In this document: positions 8,452 to 29,716 of the stretch, piece by piece
Numbering within the stretch: position 1 is the first letter of the stretch
Layout: each line of letters opens with the position of its first letter
Notes under the pieces: generated by a model
The model's input: the letters and a program-made list of their open reading frames with translations, nothing else
Told to the model about the DNA's origin: nothing
Database searches by the model: none
NCBI GenBank assembly: GCA_902500205.1
Contig: GCA_902500205.1_4868.1
Source: Escherichia coli
GTDB lineage: Bacteria > Pseudomonadota > Gammaproteobacteria > Enterobacterales > Enterobacteriaceae
DNA length: 64,000 bases
Strand: one strand, 5' to 3'
Translations under genes and position numbers: made by a program

Positions 8452-8461
8452 GGGGGACAGG

Positions 8462-12231: not shown

Positions 12232-12292
12232 CAATAACCCGGCGGGCAAAGTCCCGCCAATCAACCTGCAATCTACAAAAAAGGAATATCCC

Positions 12293-12511: not shown

Positions 12512-12532
12512 TCGACGATTGAGGATAAAGTC

Positions 12533-12964
12533 GTGAACGTAATCAAAAAGCTGAACGGCGATACTTTCCATGCTCTGATGCCGAAGGGTGCACGTATTCG
12601 GATAAACAACAAAAACAAACCCTATAAGACGGACTACACGTTCGACACCACTGACCACGCATTCGGTATCTGCGACGAAGGGACGAACGATGTCAAATGG
12701 ATTATCGTGGTATACGAAACGTCTAGTGGGTATAAGTTCTGGGATGCCTATGAACTGCAGAAGGGCTATTGGTGGTATGTCAGTTGGGAAGCTTTCAATG
12801 ACAAGGTATCTTATTCGTGGAACGACTTCCCGCACTTTTGCTGGGATAGTTGGTTTCATGATTGCGGGGATAAGATTTCTGATCTTGTCCAGGAACTCTA
12901 CAAACACTACAAAGAACACAATGGAAACTTCGTCTATCCTGAATGGGAGCAGTCGAAGTCGTGA
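12533..12964 (+). CDS. hypothetical protein (Trp-rich)
   Basis: GTG start after GAGGATAAAGTC. Confidence 0.5.
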   Translation: MNVIKKLNGDTFHALMPKGARIRINNKNKPYKTDYTFDTTDHAFGICDEGTNDVKWIIVVYETSSGYKFWDAYELQKGYWWYVSWEAFNDKVSYSWNDFPHFCWDSWFHDCGDKISDLVQELYKHYKEHNGNFVYPEWEQSKS

Positions 12965-12968
12965 AGAA

Positions 12969-13000
12969 AAGGGAGCTTCGGCTCCCCTTCTTTTTTTGTT
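12969..13000 (+). terminator. intrinsic terminator (UUCG tetraloop)
   Basis: GGGAGC-TTCG-GCTCCC followed by CTTCTTTTTTTG. Confidence 0.7.
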
Positions 13001-13117
13001 TCCTTTTCTTTTTTGTTTGCTCTTGTTCGGATTCTGGTACGCTCTACGCTTTTAATATGCTGGCAGGAGGTCTAAAAATCTTACGACCTCAATAATCCCT
13101 TAACTCGAGTTAACGCG

Positions 13118-13915: not shown

Positions 13916-13925
13916 GAGGGTATAG

Positions 13926-14768: not shown

Positions 14769-14778
14769 GGATTTTGAC

Positions 14779-15624
14779 ATGCCACTTTTAGCCACAGCTG
14801 TAAAGATTATTATCGCGGAGGTTAACGTCGAAAACAATCTCGATTTAAAAGTCGAGGATGTTGTTTTTGGTGTCCCTGCGATTCCAACGTCTGACGAAGA
14901 CTTGGCAAAAGCTAACGGTCACAACGCGATGGTGCGCATTCAGGCATTGGCCACGGCTAATGCTATCGGTGCCACTACCGTCTATTACGATCGTGTTGAC
15001 TTCGCAGACATGTTTACCGATCCGGACGGGATTCAACCTTTACGTGTTCCTGCGCGTCTCGATGCTGTTTACCAGATGCATGACGTGGTCGGGTTAATTA
15101 ACCAGTATTACGGTCTCAGCCTTAAACCTGCAGATGTGGTGAATACCGAAATCGACAGGAAGACATGGCGTGTGGATCTGATTGCCACGCCCACTTCCTT
15201 AGGTTGGATAGGGCAACAACAGGTACAGCTGTTACCAGGCGATGCGTTGCTTCCTGCAAACTTCGAACCGTTAACAGTGATGCCTTACGAGTATCCGTAT
15301 TTCAACATCAAGGTCGGTCAAGGTGCAGTTTATTCGTATCCCTGGCGCTTTGATAATTTCGCGGAGGAATTTCAACGACTAGGTGCTGCGATAACCACAG
15401 AACGTCTGGCACAGATTCTCAAAACGGTCACCGGTGATAACTGGACAACATACCGTAACCCTATCGACTTTAACCTTCGTGAAGCCGTCGTCGTCTATAA
15501 CGGGCGTAACAAAGCGGAATTACCAACCAACCCAGCAGTCGACAACGTGCTGATTGTGGAGCTGTCGTTGTACTGTCTGAATTTTGGCGGGCGTTTGTAT
15601 TTGCATTACAACGACCCTGATTAA
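14779..15624 (+). CDS. family-A paralog 3 (281 aa)
   Basis: RBS AAGGA; conserved ..YYDRVDFADMF.. segment and C-terminal ..LYLHYND. Confidence 0.65.
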   Translation: MPLLATAVKIIIAEVNVENNLDLKVEDVVFGVPAIPTSDEDLAKANGHNAMVRIQALATANAIGATTVYYDRVDFADMFTDPDGIQPLRVPARLDAVYQMHDVVGLINQYYGLSLKPADVVNTEIDRKTWRVDLIATPTSLGWIGQQQVQLLPGDALLPANFEPLTVMPYEYPYFNIKVGQGAVYSYPWRFDNFAEEFQRLGAAITTERLAQILKTVTGDNWTTYRNPIDFNLREAVVVYNGRNKAELPTNPAVDNVLIVELSLYCLNFGGRLYLHYNDPD

Positions 15625-15645
15625 TCCTGAGTAAAGGAAGTAAGA

Positions 15646-16557
15646 ATGAAACCTTTAAACAAAACGTCCGATAAGCTGGTTCTGGATTTTATTAATGAGA
15701 AAAACCCAGACGCAGAACTGGAACTTTCTAAAATAACGCTCGGCACACCGACCCCTATTAGCGATGAAGGTGCTGATCGCAATACCAGCATGACCCTGAC
15801 TGCGAAAAAGAACTCCGGGTACATCGGTACTCAGGACGTGACTTATAATCGCCTGGAAGGCGGTGCGCTGTTCCGTAATGTAACAGCATACCTCGACGTT
15901 AAACTGCCGAAAACCACCACAGACCTGCTGACGACCCTGAACACCCAATACGGATTGAAGCTGACCGAAGACGATATCGTTCCGGCGGCTATTCCGGAAA
16001 ATACCAACCCGCCGCTGACTAACCCGAACGATCCGGACCCAGCACCGGTTGACCATGTCATTACCTTCAAAGAAGACTGCTACGCTTATCTGGGCAGCAT
16101 CCCGGTTAAAATCGGTGCTAAGCCTCAGGTTGGTGAACGTCTGAGTCTGGTGGTAACACAAACCAAGCTCGACGGCCTGGTTTACCCAGATGGTCCAAGC
16201 GAAGCGAAGGGTCAGGGCTACATCTACTCTTACGGTGTAGACTGCACAGCAATCGCAGCATTCCTGAAAGTACAGGCGAAAGGTGTTATCGCTGGCGACT
16301 CTGCATTCCCGGTTGAGCTGAATAAAGTTGTGCCGGAACTGTGGGTTGCATCTGATGAGCCTGCGGATTATAACCTGAAAGGCGCTAACGTGTTGTATGT
16401 TGGTTCTACTGCTGACGATGGCACTGCTTCAGGCGACGAACCTAAGAAACCGGTTGAAGGTGCAAACACTGCTTACAACCAGGTTCTGCTGCTGCAGCTG
16501 GATGACACTCTGTGCACCAACTTCCAGGGCATCATGTACCTGCACTTTAATGCCTAA
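15646..16557 (+). CDS. family-A paralog 4 (303 aa)
   Basis: RBS AAGGAAG; N-terminus ..KLVLDFINEKNPDA...ADRNTSMTL... and C-terminal CTNFQGIMYLHFNA almost identical to paralog 1 ending. Confidence 0.7.
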   Translation: MKPLNKTSDKLVLDFINEKNPDAELELSKITLGTPTPISDEGADRNTSMTLTAKKNSGYIGTQDVTYNRLEGGALFRNVTAYLDVKLPKTTTDLLTTLNTQYGLKLTEDDIVPAAIPENTNPPLTNPNDPDPAPVDHVITFKEDCYAYLGSIPVKIGAKPQVGERLSLVVTQTKLDGLVYPDGPSEAKGQGYIYSYGVDCTAIAAFLKVQAKGVIAGDSAFPVELNKVVPELWVASDEPADYNLKGANVLYVGSTADDGTASGDEPKKPVEGANTAYNQVLLLQLDDTLCTNFQGIMYLHFNA

Positions 16558-16568
16558 TTAGGCCTCGC

Positions 16569-16610
16569 TGGGAGGAGGAAATCCTCCTCCTGGCTACTCC
16601 TTTCTTTTTT
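16569..16610 (+). terminator. intrinsic terminator
   Basis: GGGAGGAGGA-AAT-CCTCCTCC hairpin followed by a T-run. Confidence 0.6.
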
Positions 16611-16626
16611 GGCCGAGGAGGCTATT

Positions 16627-17466
16627 ATGGCTTTATATAGTCTGTCTCAGCGACAATATCTGTACGATGCGATTAATGCCGAAAACCCGGATGCTGTTCT
16701 ACCGATGGGTTTAGACAATGCTATCATCGGTACGCCGAAAGCAATCACACCGACAGCAAGCGGTGCCAACACCGAGATTATCATTCGTGGTCGTCAAGGT
16801 CGTGGCTATATCGGTCCTCAGACGTTCCGTTATAAGCGCTTGTCGCTGAACGACTTATTTAAGAACATGACACCTCAGGTAACTGCACCGAATGCCTACG
16901 GTTGGTTGAACGTGGAGTCGAAACGTACTGCGTTTGCGCAGAACCTGAACGGTCGTTATGGATTAAACCTGGTTGCAGACGATATCCCAGAACAATACGT
17001 TTATCTGAACGTAAACAACACGATGCGTATTAACGCTAGCTGTATCCAATACACTGGCAGCATCACCTTTATGTCTATCCGGGGTAAGAATAGCCTCGAA
17101 GACCTCGTGGTAAACGACATCTTGTTGGCTTTGAACCACCCTGCAGCAGCAAGCACTGGTAAGAAATACATGGGCTTCTTGACGTACGGGGAAGACTTTA
17201 CCGATGAAGTGCAGGTTATGGCCTCGTTTAAGAACGGGCGAATGGATGTAGGAAGTAACTTTGATTTGGGTTACACGTCCAATCTGATGGCCACATTGGT
17301 CGCACGTGGGGTACCGTCGTTTGATCCGACGAACTGCACAATTACCCGCTACAAAACGAGTGAGTTGGCGACCGCCAATAAAGCGTACGATAACGTATTG
17401 CTGATTACCGGCATTCAGAACGACCCGAAAGTAATCGGCGAGTGTATGTTGCACTACAACAACTAG
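16627..17466 (+). CDS. family-A paralog 5 (279 aa)
   Basis: ATG 16627 after GAGGAGG; C-terminal ..MLHYNN. Confidence 0.65.
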   Translation: MALYSLSQRQYLYDAINAENPDAVLPMGLDNAIIGTPKAITPTASGANTEIIIRGRQGRGYIGPQTFRYKRLSLNDLFKNMTPQVTAPNAYGWLNVESKRTAFAQNLNGRYGLNLVADDIPEQYVYLNVNNTMRINASCIQYTGSITFMSIRGKNSLEDLVVNDILLALNHPAAASTGKKYMGFLTYGEDFTDEVQVMASFKNGRMDVGSNFDLGYTSNLMATLVARGVPSFDPTNCTITRYKTSELATANKAYDNVLLITGIQNDPKVIGECMLHYNN

Positions 17467-17476
17467 GAATTAGCGA

Positions 17477-18364
17477 ATGGCTATTTATCAACCTTCTAAA
17501 GACGTCCTGTTGGCAGCAGTGAACGCACAGAACTCGCTTGCTGTTAAGATGACTGACATCATCTGGTCCACGCCAAAGGACATCCGTGGTACGGAGAAGG
17601 AAACGCTGACTAACCGTAACACGCAAATTAAAATTACGGCAGATGGGGTAACGGGCTCTACCTGGTCGGGTAAGAAAAATGTCTTCTACAACCGCATGAA
17701 AGTCGAAGACTTGTTAGTGCTGATCGGTGACACGTTGGCGATCGGCCCATCCAACGAAACCTTGTATGCGGCCATTCCTGGACTGAACCAACGTTACGGT
17801 TTTGTTCTGGAAGAAGCTGACCTGCAGGACGCAGATATCGAGTGGAACGGTGATAAGACCGAAGGAACTGTGCGCGTTGTTGCACATCCAGAGTCTATCG
17901 GTTGGGTTGGACAGGCGACATTTAAAGTCGTGAAAGGTGATGAGTCGTTAGTCTCTGCAGTCACCACTAACGTCCTGACCGGTCTGAAATACCCGAACGG
18001 TCAGATGGGTTCCGAAACCGTTACTGCGGTCATTGCAGAGGTTTATTCCTACCCGTACAACTTCACTAAGTACCGAGATGCTCTGCTGGCATACAAGCCG
18101 GGTATTCTGTCTGGACAGCCGTTAACGGATATGGTTAACCTGCTGAAAGATATTACGGGTACTGCATGGGTAGCGACCACTTCCGCTTCCTACGGTTTGG
18201 CGGGCGCGGAGGTTATCAGCGTTGGTCTGAATGACCCTGTTGCAATGCCGACAAACGCGAAGTACAAGTATGCGCTGGTGTTGAAACTGCCTGTTACCTG
18301 TACCACCATCGTCGGAACGTTGTATCTCCAGTTCAACGATCTGGACGATCCAAGCGAGGTATAA
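17477..18364 (+). CDS. family-A paralog 6 (295 aa)
   Basis: N-terminus MAIYQPSKDVLLAAVNAQN...NRNTQIKIT...; C-terminal ..LYLQFNDLDD. Confidence 0.65.
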   Translation: MAIYQPSKDVLLAAVNAQNSLAVKMTDIIWSTPKDIRGTEKETLTNRNTQIKITADGVTGSTWSGKKNVFYNRMKVEDLLVLIGDTLAIGPSNETLYAAIPGLNQRYGFVLEEADLQDADIEWNGDKTEGTVRVVAHPESIGWVGQATFKVVKGDESLVSAVTTNVLTGLKYPNGQMGSETVTAVIAEVYSYPYNFTKYRDALLAYKPGILSGQPLTDMVNLLKDITGTAWVATTSASYGLAGAEVISVGLNDPVAMPTNAKYKYALVLKLPVTCTTIVGTLYLQFNDLDDPSEV

Positions 18365-18367
18365 TTG

Positions 18368-19195
18368 ATGATCAACTATGCTAAGCCGTCAAACGAGTTG
18401 GTCTTTGACCTCATTAACCGGGATAACCCAAACCTACCTATTAAAGCGTCGCCGGCAAACTGCTACGTGGAGAAAGTGACACAGGTTCCCGTTAATGCAG
18501 CTTCCAACAACCGCAATACGTCGGCACGCTTGCGCGGTATTCAGGGTTCCGGATTTCGAGACGCAATCACCGTTTATTACGACCGTGTGAACTTAGCGCG
18601 GTTATTGCCGTGGGGTCCTTCTGTCCAGGCGCAGTTCGTCACGTTTGACGCTCCCAACCTCCACTCAGCCTTTTCGGTGCTCTTGGATACTTACGGAGTA
18701 AACTTCTCTGCAATCGATATCTATAACCTCCCACTGGCGGGCCCCAATACCCCAAATTACACCAATACACAGAACATCGTAGCGCTATCGACATCTCCGG
18801 CTTATATCGGTTCTGCGACGTTGCGTTATAACCGTGGTTTACCGGTACTAGACACTTCGGTGAAATCGGATGTCTTGAATGCGATTCAAGAGCCTATCTC
18901 GCCGTCTCTCGGTAAGAAGTGTATTGATTTGTTGACGTACGGTATTGACTTTACCGCGTATAAAAACCTACTGACAGTAGATGCTTCTGGCCTACCGCAG
19001 TGGGCTGGTTTGCGTAAGGTGTTGGATGACCTGGGTATTCCGAACTACGCGGGGCCACTGAACAGTAACACCGTTCAGGATGTGCCGACTTCCACCGCTC
19101 AGTTCGCTAACAAATCGTACGACCGCGTGGTTATCCAAACGGGCATCGATGAGGAAGGCGTGAAAGGCGTGGCGTACTACCACTATAACAGCTAA
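18368..19195 (+). CDS. family-A paralog 7 (275 aa)
   Basis: MINYAKPSNELVFDLINRDNPNL...NNRNTSARL...VYYDRVNLARLL; C-terminal ..YYHYNS. Confidence 0.65.
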   Translation: MINYAKPSNELVFDLINRDNPNLPIKASPANCYVEKVTQVPVNAASNNRNTSARLRGIQGSGFRDAITVYYDRVNLARLLPWGPSVQAQFVTFDAPNLHSAFSVLLDTYGVNFSAIDIYNLPLAGPNTPNYTNTQNIVALSTSPAYIGSATLRYNRGLPVLDTSVKSDVLNAIQEPISPSLGKKCIDLLTYGIDFTAYKNLLTVDASGLPQWAGLRKVLDDLGIPNYAGPLNSNTVQDVPTSTAQFANKSYDRVVIQTGIDEEGVKGVAYYHYNS

Positions 19196-19200
19196 GTGTA

Positions 19201-19226
19201 GGGGCTCTTCGGAGCCCCCTCTTTTG
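19201..19226 (+). terminator. intrinsic terminator (UUCG tetraloop, short T-run)
   Basis: GGGGCTC-TTCG-GAGCCCC followed by CTCTTTTGG. Confidence 0.5.
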
Positions 19227-19242
19227 GCGATGCGGAGTCCCT

Positions 19243-20655
19243 ATGCTATTTTACTCGAAGGAGTCGGCACTGCTTGTATACGACCAAGTCAATCGGGATA
19301 ACCCTGATTTAGTTGTTAAGCTGACGCCGGCTATCGCTGCTTTAACCGGCGGCCCAACTTCAGTTACGTTAAACCAACGTAACACCAAAGCTGTTTTCAC
19401 CGGGTATCCAGGGACAGGTGTACAAGGTAATGTTACCGTGTACTACGACCGGATTAACCTGGCCACTTTATTTAATTTTGTGCCGACTGTGGCTATCAAA
19501 GATACAGTCTTAACGGTACGAGACGCGCTACCTGCAATAAACGACGCATTGGGGCTTACATTAGTTGCTTCTGATTTGCAGTCACCTGACGCAAGTTTAC
19601 CTAAACCGAGCGCTTCGCCGCAGACGTTGAAATTAAATATCTCAGGTAATTGCCCTGCGTTTACAGGCAGCTTAACGATACGTTATACCGTCCCGAGCGG
19701 TGCAATTTACCCCGATTCTGGACCTGGCCCTAAAACGTTGCTGCAAGGTAACACTATCGCGGGTTATTTCGGAACAACCACAATTGCAGAGTTGTTTACA
19801 CACTCTCAACTTCTTAATGCCACTATATCGGCCGGTGCGTTACCACCGGTACATTCTGGTGCCGAAGGTTGGTACAAGTTCTTTTACCAGGGTAGGGTTA
19901 TTTACCTCCCGATCAGTCCTGTCGCTAGCTCCATCTCCTGGAATACGTTATATACAAACGGACTCGTTTACGGAACAGATGATAATGGTAAATACCCTGC
20001 GGCGACGCCCGTTAACCAGGGACGCATCATTAGCTTTACAGGCGCAGACAACAAAAGGTTTTACTTCCGCGTTCGTCTACCTAGTGCTGGGAAGGACCCA
20101 TACGTCAGCGGCACCCCAACTGCCGCTGAGTTAGCAGGTAGTGAGTTTGAGATGTTCAACTTTCTGTATAATGGAACGTGGGACAAACCGATTAACAGTT
20201 ACTGGACGCTGTTCTGTTTATTGAAAGATACACTGAAGACCAACGTCGCCTATCATCGCATGGCGACGTTGTCTGGAGCCAGTTGGACAAACTTAGGAAA
20301 ATCATCGAGCGCAGGCAACTACTACTGGTTCCCGGTGCTGGAGTTGGTGGATAAATCCACAGTTACCTTGGGTTTAGAAGATATCCATGGTGCGGTAGAT
20401 TACAGTCTCCAACCGTGCAGCGTGTCCGCAGAAAACACGTTTAGTCTCAAGCCGTTGGTGCTCGGTAATCCAGATACTACCGATTTCGAACCGGTAGTTG
20501 TTACTTCAGAAAACAGTTTCGCACTGCATCCGCCTGCTTTAATGCTGCCGAAGACAGTCGATTTCCAACCTATTGCGGCTACCGCTGAAATGTATACGCC
20601 CCCTGACAAGACAACGTTAACGTCTCTTAACGGTGAACTGGACGGCTTTAAGTAG
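19243..20655 (+). CDS. family-A N-terminal domain protein with extended C-terminal region, ends NGELDGFK (470 aa); cassette copy 1, gene a
   Basis: N-terminus MLFYSKESALLVYDQVNRDNPDL...NQRNTKAVF...VYYDRINLATLF; contains SGPGPKTLLQGN..GYFG; C-terminal SLNGELDGFK. Confidence 0.7.
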   Translation: MLFYSKESALLVYDQVNRDNPDLVVKLTPAIAALTGGPTSVTLNQRNTKAVFTGYPGTGVQGNVTVYYDRINLATLFNFVPTVAIKDTVLTVRDALPAINDALGLTLVASDLQSPDASLPKPSASPQTLKLNISGNCPAFTGSLTIRYTVPSGAIYPDSGPGPKTLLQGNTIAGYFGTTTIAELFTHSQLLNATISAGALPPVHSGAEGWYKFFYQGRVIYLPISPVASSISWNTLYTNGLVYGTDDNGKYPAATPVNQGRIISFTGADNKRFYFRVRLPSAGKDPYVSGTPTAAELAGSEFEMFNFLYNGTWDKPINSYWTLFCLLKDTLKTNVAYHRMATLSGASWTNLGKSSSAGNYYWFPVLELVDKSTVTLGLEDIHGAVDYSLQPCSVSAENTFSLKPLVLGNPDTTDFEPVVVTSENSFALHPPALMLPKTVDFQPIAATAEMYTPPDKTTLTSLNGELDGFK

Positions 20656-20666
20656 AGGTATCATCT

Positions 20667-21665
20667 ATGTCTTTTACTTTGCGTTGGAAAAATCCAAACG
20701 TAATCCCTACGGTAGTAAAAATCTACCGTGACGTTAAAGATATCACACCAAGCGCTTTGCCTGAACCGATTGCAACGCTCTCAAATGGCGAGACAGAATG
20801 GCGTGATGCCACCGCCAAACCAGGCGCAATCTATTATTACCTTCTAACGGTAACCGCCAACGGTAAAACAGTGGCATCGTCTAGCCAGAAATACACCATT
20901 GAGATAAAGCGTGGGATTGGCCCAATGACTATTCTAAACGGTAACGACCGTTTAGGGTTTATGGGTGCGGTTCCTTACGACGAACAATGGCTTCCGTCGC
21001 AAATGCCACCTGCATTTTTGGCGATGTTCCCTAATCTATTAACCGATCGTGTGGCGTTGTATAAATTTACCCGAAACGGGAAAATCTATTACATGCTATC
21101 TAATACGTCGCAGTTCCCGAATACGCCTGTGGACTGGGCTTCCCTCTATCAAGCCGGTTTAGTCTATGGTACAGGCGATGCTGGCCCAGAGAACGGCCAT
21201 GGAACGCTACCAGACACTCCACAAGACGCTAAGATAGTCCACAAAGGGGATACGTACATTATGCGGCTTCCTCGCGGCCTGACGATGTCTAGCGAGCCTC
21301 CTGCGTATCCTTTCGTAGCTGACTATAATGGGAAAACCCATGATGAAATCGCTTCTCTAACCAACCCGTGTGAGTATAACGATTTACTTTACACGATGGT
21401 TAACGAGGTGCCGTGGAAACAGCGTTGGGCTAACTGGGCAACGAACAGTTATACTTTTCTGGGGCAGGGTACTTTGGGAACCTTGGCAGCGTATTTCGGC
21501 GGTGGTGTTCTCTGTATGGAACACGACACCGCGGAAGACCGTGTGCTCCATCGTGGTATCTTTAACAATGCCGGTGGAACACCCGTATCAGCGATTCAGC
21601 GTATAAACTATTTATCACCCACCACGAAAGGGCGTTACTACCCTATCTTTGAACTGGTCGAGTAA
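20667..21665 (+). CDS. cassette copy 1, gene b (332 aa), structural-type protein
   Basis: Paralogous to 24121-25107 (shared IYRD..ITPSALPEP.ATL.NGETEW.D, GL.YG..GPGPE.GHG.LPD). Confidence 0.65.
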   Translation: MSFTLRWKNPNVIPTVVKIYRDVKDITPSALPEPIATLSNGETEWRDATAKPGAIYYYLLTVTANGKTVASSSQKYTIEIKRGIGPMTILNGNDRLGFMGAVPYDEQWLPSQMPPAFLAMFPNLLTDRVALYKFTRNGKIYYMLSNTSQFPNTPVDWASLYQAGLVYGTGDAGPENGHGTLPDTPQDAKIVHKGDTYIMRLPRGLTMSSEPPAYPFVADYNGKTHDEIASLTNPCEYNDLLYTMVNEVPWKQRWANWATNSYTFLGQGTLGTLAAYFGGGVLCMEHDTAEDRVLHRGIFNNAGGTPVSAIQRINYLSPTTKGRYYPIFELVE

Positions 21666-21674
21666 GGGGCAGTC

Positions 21675-22598
21675 ATGACTATACGGTTAAGCTGGCCGTC
21701 CCAAGCCAGCAAAGGTCTTACCGCGATTGAAATCTACCGCAAGGAAGGTTGGAACGCAACAATCGACGTTTACAATCCAGGCACACCCCACGCAACTTTA
21801 TCAGGCAACGCGGTAGAGTTCGTAGATAATATCGATACCCTGACGAAGAATACAACCTATCGTTATTGGGTAGCTGCTGTGAAGGACAGTGAACGACTTA
21901 TCGGCAATCCGATTACGCAAGGATTCTATCCGGACACCGGGCCGGGTCCGCAAACAATCCTGCGCGGTGACTGGGCTTCAGGTTATTTCGGTACAGTACC
22001 GAATACAGAGTTCTTTAATACTGCCGAGTTAAAACTCATGTTAACTGCGCAGCAGGGAAACATGTTTGTCTACGACCCTCAGGAATGGCACAAGTTTATT
22101 TTCCGTGGGAGAATTGTCTTCTTCCCAGCGACGATGCATTCGAAAACCAACTCGGTACAAATGGCGTATCAGTACGGTATGATGTACGGGACCGATGATG
22201 TCGGAAGTATTGTTCCGCAGGGAGCCACGGCGACTAAACAAGATTGTAAGGTCACGAAGGATGGTCGTACGTACCGTATCCGATTACCTTACGCAGTCCC
22301 GTACGACGCTGTTCTCTCAGGACAGGATTACAACAACGGTGAATGGCGAAACACAATGGGCCGTTTGTATCCTGTCGGTGCAGAGTTCGCAGCCCTCGGT
22401 CTTGGTGCGATTGACTCACTTGCAAGACAAGGCGCGACTGCGCAGCCGAATGAGTCAGGTGCCGCTGTATTAGCTCCTTTGTGGAGCAACAACATATTCG
22501 CTTATGCGTATGGCACCGTGCCTATGGGGATTAGTAACACCGCAGGTGTCGGGAACTCGGCCACGATATTCTTTGCTTTCGAATTAGTCTTACCGTAA
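21675..22598 (+). CDS. cassette copy 1, gene c (307 aa), structural-type protein
   Basis: Paralogous to 25110-26009 (IEIYRK.GWNATIDV..PGTP.ATL.G, TTYRYW.AAVKD.ER, TGPGPQ..L.GDW..GYFGTV, C-terminal ELVLP). Confidence 0.65.
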   Translation: MTIRLSWPSQASKGLTAIEIYRKEGWNATIDVYNPGTPHATLSGNAVEFVDNIDTLTKNTTYRYWVAAVKDSERLIGNPITQGFYPDTGPGPQTILRGDWASGYFGTVPNTEFFNTAELKLMLTAQQGNMFVYDPQEWHKFIFRGRIVFFPATMHSKTNSVQMAYQYGMMYGTDDVGSIVPQGATATKQDCKVTKDGRTYRIRLPYAVPYDAVLSGQDYNNGEWRNTMGRLYPVGAEFAALGLGAIDSLARQGATAQPNESGAAVLAPLWSNNIFAYAYGTVPMGISNTAGVGNSATIFFAFELVLP

Positions 22599-22611
22599 CG
22601 GAGTAAAAGCC

Positions 22612-24108
22612 ATGGGGTTGTATACAGAACCTTCAATGGAACTGCTCTGCCAACAAATTGTGCGTGACAATCCCGGTTTAGCAGGAAAAATCACCGCTGA
22701 CTCCGTTGGGGTCAGGGGTGTTCCTGTTGCGAGAAACGTTAACGGACGAAACACACAGATTACGTTGGTAGGAAAACCTGGTAAAGGATTTGCTGGGGAA
22801 ATAACGGTATATTACGACCGGTTGAATCTGGCCAGTCTGTTCAAGTCTGGCCCGAATATGGTGAGTATTCCACGTAGCGCACAAACCCATGCGGAAGCGT
22901 TACCGGCGTTCAATGAATTGAACGGGTTGAACTTAACCGCGAGTGACATCACCAGTCCAAACGTTGCATTAATGAAATACGCTACGCCGGAAACTATAAC
23001 TCTGACGGCGCACGCTAACTCCTTGTGCTATACCGGGTCATGCAAGATGACCTATGTTTACGAACCGATTGCGATGTATCCGAAGTCGGGCCCTGGGCCA
23101 AAAGGATTAATGGCCGGTAATGAGTTATACGGATTCTTTGGGCTGGTAAGCGCGGAAGAGTTATTCACATCTGATGAAATGGTGTATGCCCTCTATAACG
23201 GCACCAACTGGCCTAACCGCTACGCTATCAAGTGGCTCAAATTCTTTCTGAATGGGGCGGTAGTGTTTGTTCCGACCCGTGCGATTTGCAACGTTACCTG
23301 GGCAGACCTGTACAACAAGGGTGCAATATTTGATTCCGGAGACGCAGGACCTCGCCCGAAGTCGACTTACACACCTGTCGATGTTGAACAGTTGAAATAC
23401 ATGGTAAAACGGGATGATGAAGGAACGCATTATTTCAGAATGTCTATCCCGTATTACACCGAGAACGCCGCCGCGCCTGATTGGAGTAAACCGCCGTCAA
23501 TCACCTCTATCCTGTCACTGACCAGCAAATTGGGGTCGGTGAACGTATATGGGGAATGGGGAACTCTTAGCACGACTGATGCTAACTTCCTGGATTCCGT
23601 GTGGTTACGACACCAGTTCGGTGCCGACCAAGCGTATTACCAGTCTATCAGTGGGAGCTATCGTTCATACACCTACATCTACACCTCTTCTGGCTTTTGG
23701 CCAATCCTGGAGATGTTTGATGTTGCCAATGAACCTGTGCCGTTGATTGACGAAGGTGCAGAACTAACATGGGCACCGTCCGTGGTTACTCTGACGGACA
23801 TCGACCAAAATGAATCGCTTCGTGTGGTGCCTATTACGGAAACCTCCGCTGCAGCGAATCCACGTCCGTTAGTTTTCAACACCGACAACACCGAAACTGC
23901 CACCCCTGCCTGGGTGCGGGAAGCGTCATCAGACTCACCACGTCCTCTGCTTGCCACGACGGACAATGATGAACGTGCATATTCCGTCGCGGTAACAGGC
24001 ATGGCTAGCGTTAAGATTAGACCGATTATTCTCACGACTGACCAAATCGCCCAACCTTCAAAAATTACTCTGGGCGATACTAACGGTGAGTTGGATGGAT
24101 TCCAATAA
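22612..24108 (+). CDS. family-A N-terminal domain protein with extended C-terminal region, ends NGELDGFQ (498 aa); cassette copy 2, gene a
   Basis: N-terminus MGLYTEPSMELLCQQIVRDNPGL...NGRNTQITL...VYYDRLNLASLF; contains SGPGPKGLMAGNELYGFFG; C-terminal TNGELDGFQ. Confidence 0.7.
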   Translation: MGLYTEPSMELLCQQIVRDNPGLAGKITADSVGVRGVPVARNVNGRNTQITLVGKPGKGFAGEITVYYDRLNLASLFKSGPNMVSIPRSAQTHAEALPAFNELNGLNLTASDITSPNVALMKYATPETITLTAHANSLCYTGSCKMTYVYEPIAMYPKSGPGPKGLMAGNELYGFFGLVSAEELFTSDEMVYALYNGTNWPNRYAIKWLKFFLNGAVVFVPTRAICNVTWADLYNKGAIFDSGDAGPRPKSTYTPVDVEQLKYMVKRDDEGTHYFRMSIPYYTENAAAPDWSKPPSITSILSLTSKLGSVNVYGEWGTLSTTDANFLDSVWLRHQFGADQAYYQSISGSYRSYTYIYTSSGFWPILEMFDVANEPVPLIDEGAELTWAPSVVTLTDIDQNESLRVVPITETSAAANPRPLVFNTDNTETATPAWVREASSDSPRPLLATTDNDERAYSVAVTGMASVKIRPIILTTDQIAQPSKITLGDTNGELDGFQ

Positions 24109-24120
24109 GAGGTAACGACA

Positions 24121-25107
24121 ATGGCTTTTACAATTCGTTGGACGAACAATAACCCTGGGGCTTCGACCGTGAAGCTGTACCGCGACACCAAACCTCTGGT
24201 GCGTACGGCATTACCTGAACCTCTGGCAACGTTCACTAACGGGGAAACTGAGTATACTGACCGAACAGCGATACTGGGGACAACGTATTACTACATGACC
24301 ACTGTGACAGTGGGAAGCCGAACACTGTTCAGTCCGCAGAAATCAATTCTGATTCAGAACCGTCGCGGTATCGGCATCGTGACTCCACAGTACGGTGATG
24401 ACCGCTTTGCGTATTACGGGTATGTGGCGTACGGTGAATTGCCTAGCGCGGCTGATTATCCGCCAGGGTTTGTGGCCATTTCTGGATATGACCCAACTGT
24501 TAAGCCGGGCTTGATTAAGTTCCAGCTAGACGGTAAAATTCTGTATCTGTTTAGTGGTCTTCGTGTGAACGGCAACACGCTGTATAGCCGTGATGCGATT
24601 TATAACGCGGGTTTGCTGTACGGTGTGGAGGGACCTGGTCCGGAAGGCGGTCATGGTGATTTACCTGACGTTGACCAGGCTGGGGAGTTTACGTGGTTGG
24701 GTGACCGCTATCGGATGCGCCTGCTGCGCGGGTTAACGCTCGACAGTGAAAGCCCGGTCATGACACTCGACGCACAGTGGAACGGTAAACTCCATGACGC
24801 GTCACCGTATACTGCCGATAGCGAATACAACCGACTCATCTATGGGATAAGTAGCTGGTTCCCAGAAAAGAAAAAAGTGATGTCCCTGATAAAGTGGTCG
24901 AACACCAGCATATTCGGAAGTGGATCGCTGGTGGCAGGCCGTGGGGCGCATTGTCAGGAGTTTGACCCAGACAGTAAGTTGGGGCTGACGCGCGGATGGG
25001 CGGCGGCGGATTCCACTGATACCGTGGATAACCTCCAGCGTATACAACATGTCCCTGCGACCGTGGGCGGTATTTGGATTCCAGTAATCGAGCTTATCGA
25101 GGATTAA
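24121..25107 (+). CDS. cassette copy 2, gene b (328 aa)
   Basis: Paralog of 20667-21665. Confidence 0.65.
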   Translation: MAFTIRWTNNNPGASTVKLYRDTKPLVRTALPEPLATFTNGETEYTDRTAILGTTYYYMTTVTVGSRTLFSPQKSILIQNRRGIGIVTPQYGDDRFAYYGYVAYGELPSAADYPPGFVAISGYDPTVKPGLIKFQLDGKILYLFSGLRVNGNTLYSRDAIYNAGLLYGVEGPGPEGGHGDLPDVDQAGEFTWLGDRYRMRLLRGLTLDSESPVMTLDAQWNGKLHDASPYTADSEYNRLIYGISSWFPEKKKVMSLIKWSNTSIFGSGSLVAGRGAHCQEFDPDSKLGLTRGWAAADSTDTVDNLQRIQHVPATVGGIWIPVIELIED

Positions 25108-25109
25108 TC

Positions 25110-26009
25110 ATGCCTATTACATTAAACTTTGCACAACGGAAGCCACAGGCGCTCGATAACATTGAAATCTATCGCAAGACGCCGGGCAACGCCACCATTG
25201 ATGTTAATGCACCGGGAACGCCTCTGGCAACCCTTCCGGGTGACGCTACATCGTACGAAGACAACGCTGTGGAAAACAACACCACTTACCGTTATTGGAT
25301 AGCTGCGGTTAAAGACGGTGAGCGTGTCTTCAACACCCCTACCGCCCAAGGGTTCTTTTTAGACACCGGGCCTGGCCCCCAGAAACTGTTATACGGCGAC
25401 TGGCACGCCGGATACTTTGGAACAGTAACGCCAGCAGAGTTATTCACTAACGCGGAACTGAACAGCCTCGTGGTGAATATGTTCAGTTCCGCCGTTGGTG
25501 CCTGGCATAAGTTCATTTACAAAAACCGTATTCTGTTTATGTCCGATAACTCGATAATATACGCTAGCCCGCAGTTCATTTATAACCAGGGGCTGATGTA
25601 CGGCCAGGATGGCAACGGATATGTGCCGAGCTGGGCTAGTGCACGTAACCAACGCCGCACGGTGACGAAAAACGGTTACGAATACGTGGTGCGCTTGCCG
25701 TATTTGTTCGACTACAAATACTGGACGTCTTTCGTTGGAAGCGGTAACACCGAGTTGTATCTCGACGGTGAGTGGTTTAACACCTTCGCGCGCCTGTACA
25801 ACTACAGTGGGCAGTTTCCGCGCTTTGACGACATTCCGGTCGGTCCAATCGATTCGGTTACTGCCCAACAATCTGCATTCTTTGCGGCTATGAATAACTT
25901 GTCCGCTCAGTGGTACAACCGTCCACCCTACCCAGAGTCGCCGTCATGGGGTAACTACGGTACCGATACAATACGCTCTATTGCGGTACTTGAACTCGTT
26001 CTGCCTTAA
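25110..26009 (+). CDS. cassette copy 2, gene c (299 aa)
   Basis: ATG 25110 (MPITLNF..) chosen over the upstream in-frame start; paralog of 21675-22598. Confidence 0.6.
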   Translation: MPITLNFAQRKPQALDNIEIYRKTPGNATIDVNAPGTPLATLPGDATSYEDNAVENNTTYRYWIAAVKDGERVFNTPTAQGFFLDTGPGPQKLLYGDWHAGYFGTVTPAELFTNAELNSLVVNMFSSAVGAWHKFIYKNRILFMSDNSIIYASPQFIYNQGLMYGQDGNGYVPSWASARNQRRTVTKNGYEYVVRLPYLFDYKYWTSFVGSGNTELYLDGEWFNTFARLYNYSGQFPRFDDIPVGPIDSVTAQQSAFFAAMNNLSAQWYNRPPYPESPSWGNYGTDTIRSIAVLELVLP

Positions 26010-26029
26010 CAGGAGACTTCATGGGATTG

Positions 26030-26065
26030 TATAGCGCACTTTACCATAACAGCTAAAAATAGGCC
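26030..26065 (+). pseudogene. 11-codon remnant resembling a collapsed family-A gene (MGLYSALYHNS)
   Basis: AGGAG RBS plus ATGGGATTGTAT.. similar to the start of gene 22612 (ATGGGGTTGTATAC..); ending ..LYHNS resembles family C-termini (..YHYNS, ..LHYNN). Confidence 0.3.
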
Positions 26066-26088
26066 CTTCGGGGCCTATTTTCTTTTTT
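26056..26088 (+). terminator. intrinsic terminator (UUCG tetraloop)
   Basis: AATAGGCCC-TTCG-GGGCCTATT followed by TTCTTTTTT. Confidence 0.75.
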
Positions 26089-26099
26089 AGGACGTTGCA

Positions 26100-27419
26100 A
26101 TGATCAACTATAACAAACCTGTCATGCAACTGGTTTGGGATCAGATTAATCGTGATAACCCGCAGCTCAAGAAACCGCTCAACGCAACCAACGTGGCGTT
26201 ATTACAAGGTCCTTTAACCAATGCCTTGCGCGATGGTCGCAACAGCCGTATCGTGGTAAACGGATTACAGGGTGGTGGTTACAGCGGTAAGATGGACATC
26301 TACTACGACCGCTTAAACCTTTCGCAGTATTTTAAAGGCGTCAGCGTACCGGTTAAAGTACCTTATCGGGCGACGGTCTACCGCGACATCATCGATCGGA
26401 TTTCCGCAGCTTGTGGGTTGGTGCTTACTGCTGACGATTTAACGTATCCTGACAGCCAGTTTGCAATGATCACTGTGGCAACGGGCGATCGGACGGTGGC
26501 GATTAAATCGGATAACCCCGCATTCACGGGTTATATTCCTATTAGCTTTATTCGTGAAGAGCCCAGCTTTGCCGACTTGTACCACACCACCGAAACCGGA
26601 GCTTGGGAACCCATGGATGTTTACAGCACGGTCTATCGACTCGACTGGAGCATGTACACTCAACAGATAATCAATATCCCAATGGGTACCCCGCTGCGAC
26701 TAAACAGTAACTCGTACATGACCCAGTTCATCGCGGCGCTGTCGGCATGGTCGGGCATCCCGTTCACTATCGGTAATGCTGCTACTGATAACCCGTATGA
26801 CCTCTATGGGTATGTCGCTACACGCAATAACAACCCAGGCTTAGACCCTGATATGCGTGGGGAGTACAAATACTGCGTGAAGTTGACGCCACCTGAGGAT
26901 ATGGGTAATCTCCGCCGTCCGTTCTTCTTGCACTTTGGTCCGAAAAATAACGTGGCCTATTTGGCGCAGGAAGAGGACGTCGAGCGTTATGCGCGTTACA
27001 TGAGTTTCCGGGAAACCAGCCCAAATTCGATGAGCGTCACGTTGTATCAAAACGAGTACGTGTTGACTCGGGCAGAATCGCCTGAAACAGCGGATGATTT
27101 AACGGGTTCCCCGTATGGCACTCGATACTGTACCGGGAGTATTCGACGGCTGATGCAACACGCGTTTCCGACCGAAGAGATGTTCCAAGAAAGTATTGCT
27201 AACCGACGTCGGGTACTGTACCACACTGCTTACACCACCACGACATCAGCTATTACTTACCAGGGATTATACCGTAACGGATACCAATCCAAACAAATGA
27301 CGAGCCTCTACTCGAATTACTGTAACTATTTCATCTATTACGACCCAAGCAAAGGCGGCTATATGGTCTACAGTCCATATAGCAAAACCGCCCCGGTCCC
27401 TTGGTATCCACCGCTATAG
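26100..27419 (+). CDS. family-A N-terminal domain protein, 439 aa, C-terminal SKTAPVPW motif
   Basis: N-terminus MINYNKPVMQLVWDQINRDNPQL...DGRNSRIVV...IYYDRLNLSQYF; C-terminus YSPYSKTAPVPWYPPL related to next gene. Confidence 0.65.
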   Translation: MINYNKPVMQLVWDQINRDNPQLKKPLNATNVALLQGPLTNALRDGRNSRIVVNGLQGGGYSGKMDIYYDRLNLSQYFKGVSVPVKVPYRATVYRDIIDRISAACGLVLTADDLTYPDSQFAMITVATGDRTVAIKSDNPAFTGYIPISFIREEPSFADLYHTTETGAWEPMDVYSTVYRLDWSMYTQQIINIPMGTPLRLNSNSYMTQFIAALSAWSGIPFTIGNAATDNPYDLYGYVATRNNNPGLDPDMRGEYKYCVKLTPPEDMGNLRRPFFLHFGPKNNVAYLAQEEDVERYARYMSFRETSPNSMSVTLYQNEYVLTRAESPETADDLTGSPYGTRYCTGSIRRLMQHAFPTEEMFQESIANRRRVLYHTAYTTTTSAITYQGLYRNGYQSKQMTSLYSNYCNYFIYYDPSKGGYMVYSPYSKTAPVPWYPPL

Positions 27420-27433
27420 ACTAAGGTGCCACC

Positions 27434-29611
27434 ATGTCCTACACTCCTGATTTAGTGGCGACCGTGATTCGGTCGCTCAACCGTAAAAACGCGGTCGCCA
27501 GAGCAGTAGACCCCGCTAACGTACGCCTGGTGTCCGTGGCGCATCGTGACGAAAAAACCCTAGACGTCACACTGACAGGGGGTCCGGGGTATTCTAGTTA
27601 CGGTCAAATTACGGCCCAGGTCACGAAGCAAAATATTGCTGATTATTTCGCTAAGGTTAAGTTGGATGCCATTCCCACTTGTGCGTCCATCCACGAACTG
27701 TTGCCACATTTAGACACTCTACTAGGGATTACCTTTTTAACCGACGACTTTGAAGACCTGCCCATCACTTGGACAAACAATGCTGCGCGCATCACGTTCC
27801 AGGCGAAACAGACAAGTCTTATCTGGTACGGCAGCCAAACGCTAGATGTGATAAACGGTGACGTGGATATCAACACTGTCTACACTGTTACCAATATCAT
27901 TTTCACGCTAAAGGCTGCGAATAAACAGCAGTGGATTAACTTCTACTCTAATGCAGCCAAACGGATCGTGGATCTTGATAAAGTCGATGTCAGCGCCCCG
28001 ATGTCCCCGGAGGATATAGGCCAAACCTCTGCGTATAACAGCGTCGTAGCTTTGACCGCTAGACCGGGGAGCGGGATGTTTGGAACGAAGTATGTGTTCT
28101 TCTCACGTAACAAACTCGAGACATATGCAGGCAAAACCACATACGTCCCGGACGATTTCACCGGTAGCCTGCATGATGCTCTGGCCATCGAGACACTCGG
28201 CATTCGGAGTGTTTTTGATGTAAACGAAATTGCTCCTGTAGAGAACCTGACAGGCGAGTGGCCGAGACAAGTGCAATTGGCACCCGTAGAGGGTTCGTAC
28301 AAAGTCATGGGCAGCGCCACGTTGAATGTGGCACGCTATCAAGATAACGAGCAAACCCTTAACCTGAACTACACAACTACGTCGCAACTTTCGGACAGCT
28401 ACTGGGCCACAACGTTGATCAACCATGCGGCCTGCGGGCGTTTGTTTGTTAACGTGACCGTAGATGCGGGGGCTTTCGTTTATCGCGACAGCAACCTGAA
28501 ACCGACGTTCGTTATCGACGAATTGCCGCAAATTGGCGAGGTGGTTTGGAACTTCGTTAACCGGGGAACCATTCTTGGTCGTGGTGGTTCGGGTGTGGTC
28601 TACTCTATGCCTGCGAACACATCAGCGGACGGAGCTGACGCAATCCACATTAGCGATACCTTCCGTGGCAAAGTCACCATCGAAAACTACGGCACCATCG
28701 CCGGTGGTGGGGGTGGGGGCGACTACTATGCGTTTAGCACCACCAAGATCGGTGGAGCTGGTGGTGCGCCTCTCGGGCCAGGCGCGGCGGTGCCCAGCGA
28801 CACCAATAACCGTAACGGCTTAGCTGGGTCCCGTGACAAAGGCGGTGCTACCCAGTTAGTCGTCGCGCAATTTACCGGCTACCAGAGTCGCTACTATGGC
28901 GGTCCGGGTGGGGATTGGGGCCAGCCGGGACGTTATACAGCGTTCGAGCAATGGAACACCCCGGCTACCGGCTCGCCGGTCTATGTCTACGGTCGTGAAG
29001 ACGGGATGTCATGGACTCGCCCTGGGATGGCAGGCGAAGCCGTCGGTGGGAATAAAAGTATCGTCAACTGGGTATCCGTCGGAACGGTGAAACCGAATGT
29101 CACCGACGAGTACCAAGAGTTCCTCGACTACCTCGCAGATTTAGATGCCAACCGACTGGCTAGTGCGGATGGGATAGATAAAGTCACCGACCCAACCAAA
29201 CCTGTAGTTGTGGAGTTCTTAGGTACGATTATTTCAGGTACGCTGTTCAAAAAGCAAAACATACCCGGCGGTTTGGTGGGAACACCATACGGCGATGCTG
29301 TAGCCAACTTACCAGCCACCACATTGTTTGGTATCATGGCACACTGTGTATCGGAGTTTGATATTGTGCACGACACTTGGCGTTACAACCGCGCGGTAAT
29401 GTTCACGCTAAAACCCGCACCTACCGGGGCGATTAGCCTCGCTGTGGAACGCAACCGGGTGAAATCGGCTACCAGTAGTGCACCGGTGGAGAAGTTCTAC
29501 GTCGATCGCTTCGTGTATTACGATGCGTATCTCGGTAAAATGATGGAATGTAATCCGTATACCAAATCTGCCCCTAAACCGTGGGTGCGGCCAACGATAC
29601 CGTTATCGTAA
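27434..29611 (+). CDS. family-A-related large protein, 725 aa, Gly-rich internal segment, C-terminal TKSAPKPW motif
   Basis: Weaker N-terminal family resemblance; internal GGGGGGDYYAFSTTKIGGAGGAPLGPGAAVP; C-terminus NPYTKSAPKPWVRP parallels the preceding gene. Confidence 0.65.
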   Translation: MSYTPDLVATVIRSLNRKNAVARAVDPANVRLVSVAHRDEKTLDVTLTGGPGYSSYGQITAQVTKQNIADYFAKVKLDAIPTCASIHELLPHLDTLLGITFLTDDFEDLPITWTNNAARITFQAKQTSLIWYGSQTLDVINGDVDINTVYTVTNIIFTLKAANKQQWINFYSNAAKRIVDLDKVDVSAPMSPEDIGQTSAYNSVVALTARPGSGMFGTKYVFFSRNKLETYAGKTTYVPDDFTGSLHDALAIETLGIRSVFDVNEIAPVENLTGEWPRQVQLAPVEGSYKVMGSATLNVARYQDNEQTLNLNYTTTSQLSDSYWATTLINHAACGRLFVNVTVDAGAFVYRDSNLKPTFVIDELPQIGEVVWNFVNRGTILGRGGSGVVYSMPANTSADGADAIHISDTFRGKVTIENYGTIAGGGGGGDYYAFSTTKIGGAGGAPLGPGAAVPSDTNNRNGLAGSRDKGGATQLVVAQFTGYQSRYYGGPGGDWGQPGRYTAFEQWNTPATGSPVYVYGREDGMSWTRPGMAGEAVGGNKSIVNWVSVGTVKPNVTDEYQEFLDYLADLDANRLASADGIDKVTDPTKPVVVEFLGTIISGTLFKKQNIPGGLVGTPYGDAVANLPATTLFGIMAHCVSEFDIVHDTWRYNRAVMFTLKPAPTGAISLAVERNRVKSATSSAPVEKFYVDRFVYYDAYLGKMMECNPYTKSAPKPWVRPTIPLS

Positions 29612-29654
29612 TTTAACGAGGAACTTGACGGGTTTAAAGCCTGAAGATAAACCA

Positions 29655-29690
29655 TGCCCTCTTCCCCACGGGGAAGAGGCTTTCTTTTTA
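29655..29690 (+). terminator. intrinsic terminator
   Basis: CCTCTTCCCC..GGGGAAGAGG hairpin followed by CTTTCTTTTT. Confidence 0.7.
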
Positions 29691-29716
29691 TGACCCTATC
29701 AACTCAGGAGGTTATC

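Follow-up and report, generated by a model that had tools for sequence, protein, structure and literature searches.

Positions 19243-26009 of the window, the 64,000-nt stretch of DNA analyzed here, hold two diverged tandem copies of a three-gene module whose members are termed A, B and C. The source phage is a Seoulvirus, an SPN3US-like, nucleus-forming jumbo phage of the Salmonella-phage SPN3US type. The window shares 98.4% identity with Salmonella jumbo phage SPN3US, and the cassette region aligns in a single piece with SPN3US 121518-128287 (98.4% DNA identity over 6,767 nt), with the six genes representing orthologs of gp145-150. BLASTP among the window's proteins reveals that the six ORFs are paralogous in order, as the earlier note had proposed in describing a tandem duplication of a three-gene cassette. 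A1 and A2 share 29.5% amino acid identity (512 columns, E 3e-62), B1 and B2 share 39.1% over 335 (E 4e-56), and C1 and C2 share 43.4% over 318 (E 9e-65), where all matches between cassettes are full length, collinear and far beyond chance. Comparison of 19243-22598 with 22612-26009 shows collinearity that is clear at the protein level and residual at the DNA level, the latter consisting only of short collinear patches (67% over 170 nt, 74% over 62 nt and 72% over 58 nt) plus motif-coding patches. A large tandem paralog family of virion proteins has already been published for SPN3US; the basic fact of duplication is no discovery, and the finding is largely ordinary, with modest refinements.

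Table 1 Features of the paralog array, with positions in the window.
Feature	Coordinates	Strand	Basis or remark
Seven tandem full-length DUF7941 genes, 265-303 aa	13118..19195	+	Orthologs of SPN3US gp138-144
Terminator-like hairpin, GC-rich, UUCG tetraloop, then T-run	19201..19218	+	Pattern match only
A1, 470 aa	19243..20655	+	Ortholog of SPN3US gp145
B1, 332 aa	20667..21665	+	Ortholog of SPN3US gp146; phrog_1062
C1, 307 aa	21675..22598	+	Ortholog of SPN3US gp147
A2, 498 aa	22612..24108	+	Ortholog of SPN3US gp148
B2, 328 aa	24121..25107	+	Ortholog of SPN3US gp149
C2, 299 aa	25110..26009	+	Ortholog of SPN3US gp150
Relic of third cassette, 11-codon ORF MGLYSALYHNS*	26021..26056	+	Alignment to SPN3US
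Terminator-like UUCG-tetraloop hairpin with T-run	26056..26090	+	Conserved in SPN3US and SPLA3
Two more DUF7941 genes, 439 aa (gp154-like) and 725 aa (gp155-like)	26100..29611	+	

The gene-by-gene layout agrees with SPN3US gp138-155 in gene content, order and near-identical sequence, and the sole structural difference is that SPN3US 128288-131764 is missing from the window. The six cassette ORFs were confirmed at the coordinates and lengths given in Table 1; for C2, the ORF listing gives a longer TTG-started form from 25074, while the ATG at 25110 is the annotation in every relative. The seven upstream DUF7941 genes are a portion of the same paralog array as the cassettes, such that the array runs from seven full-length DUF7941 genes into one to three A-B-C units. 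The first hairpin divides these seven singleton genes from the cassettes, and the second forms, as a terminator-like pattern, the end of the cassette transcription unit; the total count of terminator-like sites in the region is not above shuffled expectation. Beyond the cassettes, the gp154-like product combines a complete DUF7941 with a C-terminal extension, and the gp155-like product comprises two DUF7941 N-terminal domains, a GP38-adhesin-like domain and a C-terminal extension as in the gp154-like protein. Both this larger published array and the presence of three cassettes in the reference phage SPN3US had been overlooked in the earlier note. tRNA and Rfam scans of the window were empty, and a sigma-70 promoter scan gave matches below shuffled expectation, which is uninformative for a phage using its own RNA polymerases.

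The duplication is old, one of the two options that had been offered from amino acid divergence, because cassette-1 proteins are closer to their orthologs in other phage genera (45-67% identity with those of Erwinia phages Huxley, Kwan and phiEaH2) than they are to the cassette-2 proteins encoded by their own genome (31-42%). Neighbor-joining trees of A, B and C have the same topology, and the cassette has therefore been duplicated and lost whole. That is to say, the module was duplicated or deleted as an entire unit several times, via unequal or illegitimate recombination, and related phages therefore carry one to three copies, a range counted across five genera (nine genomes) and in one additional uncultivated relative. 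Cassette 1 is kept across four genera. SPN3US has three cassettes and a 5' stub of a fourth A gene, whereas the window has two and a fused stub (26021-56). Its genome has lost the third copy, gp151-153, which Paralog family B of SPN3US includes, and a 36-nt relic remains in which the first ~19 nt of A3 are fused with the tail end of the stub of the fourth A gene that lies after C3 in SPN3US. At this deletion junction, two SPN3US alignments overlap at 26031-26039, with ATAGCGCAC meeting ATAGCGTAC (microhomology). SPLA3, SPLA5c and STsAS have each had the locus altered independently and in their own way, as illustrated by a homologous crossover between A3 and the A4 stub in SPLA3 and by a B2/B3 hybrid in SPLA5c. 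Cassette losses in viable isolates comprise those of the window, EC001, Lh1B, SPLA3 and STsAS, and CR5 has a single copy.

Inspection of the domain architecture reveals that A1 consists of a DUF7941 N-terminal domain (aa 1-150), a domain termed X (aa ~151-372) and a disordered tail (aa ~373-470) ending in NGELDGFK. A2 shares this architecture, with a longer tail that contains three RP(L/I)xxxTD-like repeats and ends in NGELDGFQ. The last residues of the A tail, K-x-x-L-x-x-x-N-G-E-L-D-G-F, are conserved across all cassette types, and the NGELDGF end resembles the DUF7941 linker motif T-x-(K/E)-L-D-G-L-x-Y-P, although this is a short motif that hhalign does not report. Pfam DUF7941 (PF25613) matches A1 and A2 at 109.5 and 104.4 bits (cut-off 27) over profile positions 1-153 of 276 only, namely the N-terminal domain (hhalign 99.9%). 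B1, B2, C1 and C2 gave no match to this profile, leaving the A genes as its only members within the cassettes, and B1 matched nothing in Pfam. B1 instead has an FN3-like N-terminal domain (aa ~1-78) followed by X, and C1 has an FN3 domain (aa ~1-85) followed by X (aa ~86-307). The FN3 assignment rests on a seven-strand beta-sandwich that superposes on solved FN3 domains; Pfam fn3 (PF00041) gave no sequence match, with a best E of 0.059 in 3 of 21 C-family members. The ~220-aa X domain is shared by A and C (hhalign probability 99.8%, E 4e-28), B and C align over columns 1-206 (probability 100%, E 5e-41), and X was also seen in a six-sequence alignment. It opens in all three proteins with the (S/T)GPGP...G....GYFG segment that had been described as common to them, and the other quoted motifs (IEIYRK..NATIDV, TTYRYW.AAVKD.ER, the ELVLP end and the NGELDGF(K/Q) end) are likewise present. 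A, B and C within one cassette are also mutual paralogs, a relationship that had gone unremarked.

The X domain probably adopts a C-type-lectin-like fold, given the moderate structural resemblance of a predicted model to CTLD/FGE/Mtd-type domains. Pfam searches of 21 C-family members at E up to 10 found no family matching X. Each A-B-C unit contributes X three times, a probably lectin-like domain with neither annotation nor Pfam family. GenBank labels the B/C orthologs of Proteus phage 7 and MET_P1_082_240 as glycosyl hydrolase, but no glycoside hydrolase family matched. Sequence searches of PDB chains with A1, B1, C1 and one DUF7941 singleton returned nothing significant, and the A-family profile likewise found nothing in the PDB; phiKZ gp127 was reached there by the DUF7941 profile alone. 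A BFVD fold search returned only uncharacterized chimallivirus 'virion structural proteins'. A search with an X profile yields 1,740 clusters (at 50% identity), and the domain is abundant in jumbo-phage metagenomes. Among the clusters are giant proteins, encoded on ~250-275 kb contigs, in which as many as 10 copies of X are fused to BspA-type LRR (DUF285), Kelch propeller or ConA-like lectin modules. C-type-lectin-fold receptor-binding domains (Bordetella phage Mtd, Treponema TvpA, the Legionella Lcl C-terminal domain and the Bdellovibrio Bd2740 fiber tip) share no sequence similarity with X, and the resemblance to them is moderate and drawn from the predicted model. In contrast to these domains, the cassettes lack a diversity-generating retroelement signature: a retroelement target was rejected for want of a template/variable repeat pair in 12900-29700, where no direct repeat exceeds 46 nt and all that occur are patches encoding motifs, at 60-79% identity.

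On balance, we lean toward a role in which the cassettes encode ligand-binding modules on DUF7941 filaments for host recognition. DUF7941 proteins of chimalliviruses, namely Goslar gp22/gp23 and phiKZ gp126/gp127, are filament proteins (PDB 9XQD), and a purified DUF7941 protein forms extended filaments (bioRxiv 10.64898/2026.04.21.720040). A would join such head-to-tail filaments via its N-terminal domain, its C-terminal ELDGF peptide may, from its likeness to the linker motif, be the donor side of the filament contact, and A would thus display its X domain, lectin-like in appearance, on the filament. B and C would be cognate partners of A that add two further X domains per unit, which would account for the constant co-occurrence of the three genes. 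With several diverged cassettes, a virion could have more than one binding specificity for a first, reversible attachment to polymers on the host surface. The GP38 adhesin domain (Pfam) in the gene neighboring the cassettes fits a binding context, as do the fusions of X to LRR, Kelch or ConA-like lectin modules and an EPS depolymerase gene that lies directly upstream of the array in the Erwinia relatives. In contrast to the published filament proteins, A is without the DUF7941 C-terminal domain, no part of DUF7941 occurs in B or C, and the distal position is taken by X, where the published proteins have a glycoside hydrolase, an LRR or an annotated carbohydrate-binding module. We counted the missing DUF7941 element of B and C, the missing Pfam family of X, the shortness of the ELDGF-linker similarity and the lack of a clean host link for cassette-3 loss against this model.

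Virion location bears directly on this model. The cassettes are the same genes as part of SPN3US Paralog family B, a PSI-BLAST-defined tandem family of virion proteins in the head fraction that comprises 17 genes, gp138-154, whose products were all identified in tailless heads by mass spectrometry, and also counts gp83, gp161 and gp237; the available part of its description does not include the A-B-C periodicity or the domain make-up (Thomas et al. 2016, PMC5105663; Ali et al. 2017, PMC5694885). In SPN3US virions, the nine cassette proteins are all of low-to-middle abundance, and they stay with tailless heads, where gp145-153 reach 1.06-1.67x the normalized wild-type level and true proteins of the tail and baseplate drop to at most 4% (PMC10052503, Table S2). 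In contrast, the DUF7941 filament model anchors its proteins at the baseplate periphery (bioRxiv 10.64898/2026.04.21.720040). Head and baseplate locations cannot both be the whole story, and the locus is well suited to resolving this contradiction, which touches a current question in jumbo-phage biology, the role and position of the many DUF7941 proteins.

The head data lend weight to a serious, though unlikely, alternative in which the cassette proteins would decorate the capsid or form whiskers at the neck or collar, attached to the head itself in the manner of T4 Hoc or fibritin, instead of serving as baseplate-anchored filament subunits; such proteins might still bind ligands. The retention of gp145-153 in tailless heads fits this arrangement, as do their spectral counts per kDa, which are near those of the 12-copy portal (a rough estimate from PMC10052503, Table S2), and exposed decoration proteins typically have FN3 or Ig-like modules. 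Against it, the available part of the phiKZ cryo-EM description names gp35 and gp244 for the outer capsid and gp34 and gp144 for the whisker collar, and places the DUF7941 protein gp127 in the outer baseplate; self-assembling DUF7941 filaments could, moreover, co-purify with heads. Like Hoc and other Ig/FN3 capsid decoration proteins, the cassette proteins pair an FN3-type module with a dispensable, head-associated place in the virion and possible weak adhesion. T4 Hoc contains Ig-like domains alone and occupies every hexamer. The cassette proteins have no sequence relationship to it, and are apparently low-copy with a large extra domain.

A combination of the head data with the filament model is rather doubtful: A-B-C would be a cognate lectin-like adhesin unit plugged by the A N-terminal domain and ELDGF into head-anchored DUF7941 filaments, forming a head-borne, modular host-capture 'cloud' with a repertoire tuned by whole-cassette gain, loss and hybridization. 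We consider it improbable that the cassette proteins are internal head proteins, scaffolding-like or ejected with the DNA and devoid of a host-recognition role. Jumbo-phage heads do contain many internal proteins and the SPN3US authors, in the available part of their reports, class Paralog family B as head proteins (PMC5694885, PMC5105663), but FN3 and lectin-like folds, as well as X fusions to LRR, Kelch and ConA-like lectin domains, typify surface proteins, and a purified DUF7941 protein forms extended filaments.

All cassette copies are under purifying selection. Orthologs were compared, for which dN/dS against SPN3US is 0.15-0.37 in five of the six cassette genes, C1 giving 0.90 from only 4 substitutions and hence with little meaning, and A1 and B1 give 0.06-0.23 overall against three further strains. 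Values between orthologs are therefore mostly 0.06-0.37, which indicates purifying selection and speaks against the earlier suggestion that the copies might be diversifying under selection. dN/dS between the cassette copies themselves is uninformative, as synonymous sites are saturated at 30-43% protein identity, a state reached even between orthologs of the window and STsAS. It is very unlikely that the copies are redundant ballast of which one cassette would be enough and the extras tolerated by a large capsid, for although whole cassettes have been lost repeatedly in viable isolates, the reading frame of each retained copy is intact, dN/dS lies far under 1 where substitutions suffice to judge, SPN3US produces all nine of its cassette proteins and builds them into the virion, and cassette 1 persists across four genera.

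Cassette loss did not track host cleanly, as cassette 3 is absent from E. coli phages EC001 and Lh1B and equally from Salmonella phage SPLA3. Natural two-, three- and hybrid-cassette isolates exist as ready material on cassette proteins and host range.

The six open reading frames that an earlier note had described as two collinear three-gene cassettes are all found where it placed them. BLASTP among the window proteins matches each gene of cassette 1 (A1, B1 and C1) to its counterpart in cassette 2 (A2, B2 and C2) over the full length and in conserved order, with identities of 29.5% (E 3e-62), 39.1% (E 4e-56) and 43.4% (E 9e-65) for A, B and C, respectively, which confirms the observation. 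At the DNA level, collinear similarity between the cassettes is limited to short stretches at 67-74% identity, and a repeat search returns motif-coding patches and nothing else. The cassette region is 98.4% identical to Salmonella phage SPN3US over its entire 6,767 nt and 95-98% identical to ~20 other Seoulvirus genomes, and its six genes are SPN3US gp145-150 as judged by position and protein mass. The name Paralog family B and the head assignment of these SPN3US paralogues appear in two papers (PMC5105663; PMC5694885). Replicate mass spectrometry finds gp138-155 in tailless 255(am107) heads at 0.89-1.67x the normalised wild-type level, with tail proteins down to 4% or less in the same data (PMC10052503, Table S2). 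Since the family is published, assigned to the head and detected by mass spectrometry, the paralogy itself was already known, and the feature is an established paralogue family of a well-studied phage. What is new here is the A-B-C periodicity with its domain map and an unannotated domain, X, together with variation in cassette number, several independent deletion junctions and stub relics.

Profile comparisons reveal a core common to A and C (99.8% probability, A 146-288) and to B and C (100% probability, columns 1-206), and a six-way alignment extends this common domain as far as a shared P-V/I-x-E-L-V end. The resulting domain X is about 220 aa long and matches no Pfam family. The N-termini of A1 and A2 correspond to the N-terminal half of DUF7941 (Pfam, scoring 109 and 104 bits over positions 1-153 of the 276-position profile; 99.9% by hhalign). 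A is composed of a DUF7941 N-terminal domain, X and a tail, and B and C are each composed of FN3 and X; in PHROGs, A is phrog_3589 and both B and C are phrog_1062. Because X is common to A, B and C, the three genes within one cassette are older paralogues of one another. The remaining matches of A1, obtained with a predicted model, are consistently to binding domains of the C-type-lectin fold, namely the Legionella Lcl C-terminal domain (6.8), the Bdellovibrio fibre tip Bd2740 (6.2), Treponema TvpA (6.1), FGE/EgtB/PvdO, Bordetella phage Mtd (4.6) and many animal CTLDs (4.2-5.1). The GenBank name "glycosyl hydrolase", carried by some B and C orthologues, is unsupported by Pfam, PHROGs or fold searches.

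Within the window, X is confined to the six cassette genes, and DUF7941 occurs in 13 ORFs. Two of these are small, encode the N-terminal domain only and lie scattered away from the others, adding two members to the paralogue family. In the gp155-like protein, two DUF7941 N-terminal domains in tandem (aa 12-157 and aa 171-305) precede a GP38 tail-fibre-adhesin-like domain (aa 362-553; Pfam PF05268, E 1.5e-18), and its C-terminal ~105 aa recur in the preceding 439-aa gene (BLASTP E 1.6e-7). Its presence in tailless SPN3US heads is odd for an adhesin-like protein. Four strong, GC-rich hairpins occupy exactly the gaps between the array blocks (singletons, cassettes and gp154/155-like genes) and are likely transcription terminators bracketing three units. 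Two adjoining radical-SAM genes are conserved beside the array in all relatives examined. The gp154/155-like genes precede the cassettes instead of following them in CR5 and an uncultivated relative (L013), and are missing from the loci of Erwinia phages Huxley, phiEaH2 and Kwan, where an EPS depolymerase gene lies directly upstream of the DUF7941 array.

Coordinates of array features in the window and, where named, in the loci of relatives (own coordinates)
Feature	Position	Strand	Remarks
A1	19243-20655		DUF7941
B1	20667-21665
C1	21675-22598
A2	22612-24108		DUF7941
B2	24121-25107
C2	25110-26009
X domains, cassette 1	19693-20358, 20892-21662, 21912-22595		three cassette-2 equivalents also
Seven singletons	13118-19195		full-length DUF7941
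gp154-like gene	26100-27419		DUF7941
gp155-like gene	27434-29611	+	DUF7941; 725 aa
189-aa ORF	3057-3626	+	DUF7941 N-terminal domain only, E 2e-17
182-aa ORF	32493-33041	+	DUF7941 N-terminal domain only, E 6e-13
Hairpin and T-run	12971-12986	+	TTCG tetraloop; pattern match
Hairpin and T-run	19201-19218	+	TTCG tetraloop; pattern match
Hairpin and T-run	26056-26081	+	TTCG tetraloop; pattern match
Hairpin and T-run	29658-29679	+	ACGG loop; pattern match
Radical-SAM genes	34298-36569	-	two, adjoining
Third-cassette relic	26021-26056		11-codon fusion
Fourth-A stub, SPN3US (L001)	19150-19242		30 codons
"Glycosyl hydrolase" B, C orthologues, Proteus phage 7 (L002)	7425-16136		name also in MET_P1_082_240
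EPS depolymerase loci, Huxley, phiEaH2, Kwan (L004, L005, L006)	~4500-6350 each
Hybrid cassette, SPLA5c (L012)	7370-11068		A2, a B2/B3 chimera (two ORFs in the annotation) and C3

In a 1.84-billion-protein library, an X profile has hits in 1,740 clusters defined at 50% identity (1,069 at E<=1e-10), some of whose proteins are 1,000-2,200 aa long and contain as many as ten copies of X. These giant proteins fuse X to BspA-type LRR (DUF285), Kelch propeller or ConA-like lectin (Laminin_G_3) domains, and their contigs, at ~250-275 kb, are of jumbo-phage size. Structural relatives in BFVD are all chimallivirus "virion structural proteins". A 2026 preprint on phage Goslar describes DUF7941 as N-terminal and C-terminal domains joined by a linker, predicts that the linker of one protomer docks onto the N-terminal domain of the next, reports filaments of purified gp22, and notes carbohydrate-binding, hydrolase or LRR domains on some DUF7941 proteins (bioRxiv 10.64898/2026.04.21.720040). 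A proteins end in a conserved sequence, K-x-x-L-x-x-x-N-G-E-L-D-G-F, that is similar to a motif in the linker of the DUF7941 singletons, T-x-(K/E)-L-D-G-L-x-Y-P; by this short-motif argument, A may retain both sides of the filament contact, acceptor and donor. On balance, we lean towards a reading in which the cassettes would supply lectin-like binding units to the DUF7941 filament system, with several diverged cassettes providing several binding specificities. Redundancy of the cassettes would be a rival reading.

Published data disagree on where DUF7941 proteins sit. The Goslar preprint puts forward a "fiber cloud" for host recognition; its proposed anchoring on the peripheral baseplate is based on phiKZ gp127, whose docking in the outer baseplate periphery is generalised to all chimalliviruses (PMC13250141; bioRxiv 10.64898/2026.04.21.720040). 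This conflicts with the location measured for SPN3US, where DUF7941 is in the head fraction of tailless particles (PMC10052503, Table S2). Two further rivals to the filament reading would be direct decoration of the head or neck and a role as internal head proteins.

Cassette copy number ranges from 1 to 3 in the relatives compared. Three cassettes are present in SPN3US, Proteus phage 7, SPFM4, Huxley (Machinavirus) and phiEaH2 (Erskinevirus); two in the window, EC001, Lh1B, SPLA3, STsAS, Kwan (Wellingtonvirus), EarlPhillipIV (Derbicusvirus) and the uncultivated relative; and one in CR5. A more distant 268-kb contig carries four tandem FN3-X genes, with no A gene, adjoining fibre-like genes. 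The A, B and C genes give congruent neighbour-joining trees; being distance-based and midpoint-rooted, they are trusted only for well-separated groupings. Orthologues of cassette 1, at 45-76% identity, occur throughout Seoulvirus, Machinavirus, Erskinevirus and Wellingtonvirus; within Seoulvirus, cassettes 2 and 3 pair as sisters at 39-46% identity, and the Erwinia phages hold two more cassette lineages. These comparisons indicate that the unit is duplicated and lost whole and that the split between cassettes 1 and 2 predates these genera, which supports the old tandem duplication proposed in the earlier note.

The locus is a hot spot of recombination, where close relatives have undergone several independent events. 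In SPN3US, a fourth A gene follows C3 as a 5' stub, MGFYSSTALELLCRLIQRDNPQHAGRISWS*. The window lacks the third cassette and retains a relic in which ~19 nt from the start of A3 run into the tail of the fourth-A stub across a 9-nt microhomology; EC001 and Lh1B align across this junction as a single unbroken alignment. SPLA3 lost its third cassette by another route, a homologous crossover between the A3 5' end and the stub. SPLA5c has a B2/B3 hybrid, no C2 or A3, and an A2 tail shortened by a deletion of ~70 nt, and STsAS and SPAsTU keep cassette 1 and a cassette 3-like unit with cassette 2 absent. Beyond its hybrid cassette, SPLA5c has a longer stub ORF, part of which shares 79% identity with the gp144-like gene at its 3' end.

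The copies are constrained, with neither decay nor pervasive positive selection. Relative to SPN3US, dN/dS is 0.15-0.37 in five of the six cassette genes; the ratio of 0.90 for C1 is uninformative because it rests on only 4 substitutions. Against three more strains, A1 and B1 give 0.06-0.23 overall, and the small FN3 segment of B1 gives 0.79 on only 7 substitutions. Comparison with SPFM4 reveals 4-15 differences only in A1, B1, A2, B2 and C2, and 35 differing residues in C1, 23 of which fall within residues 213-298, the C-terminal third. This clustering points either to allele exchange (a local mosaic) or to a local hot spot of variation within the distal X half.
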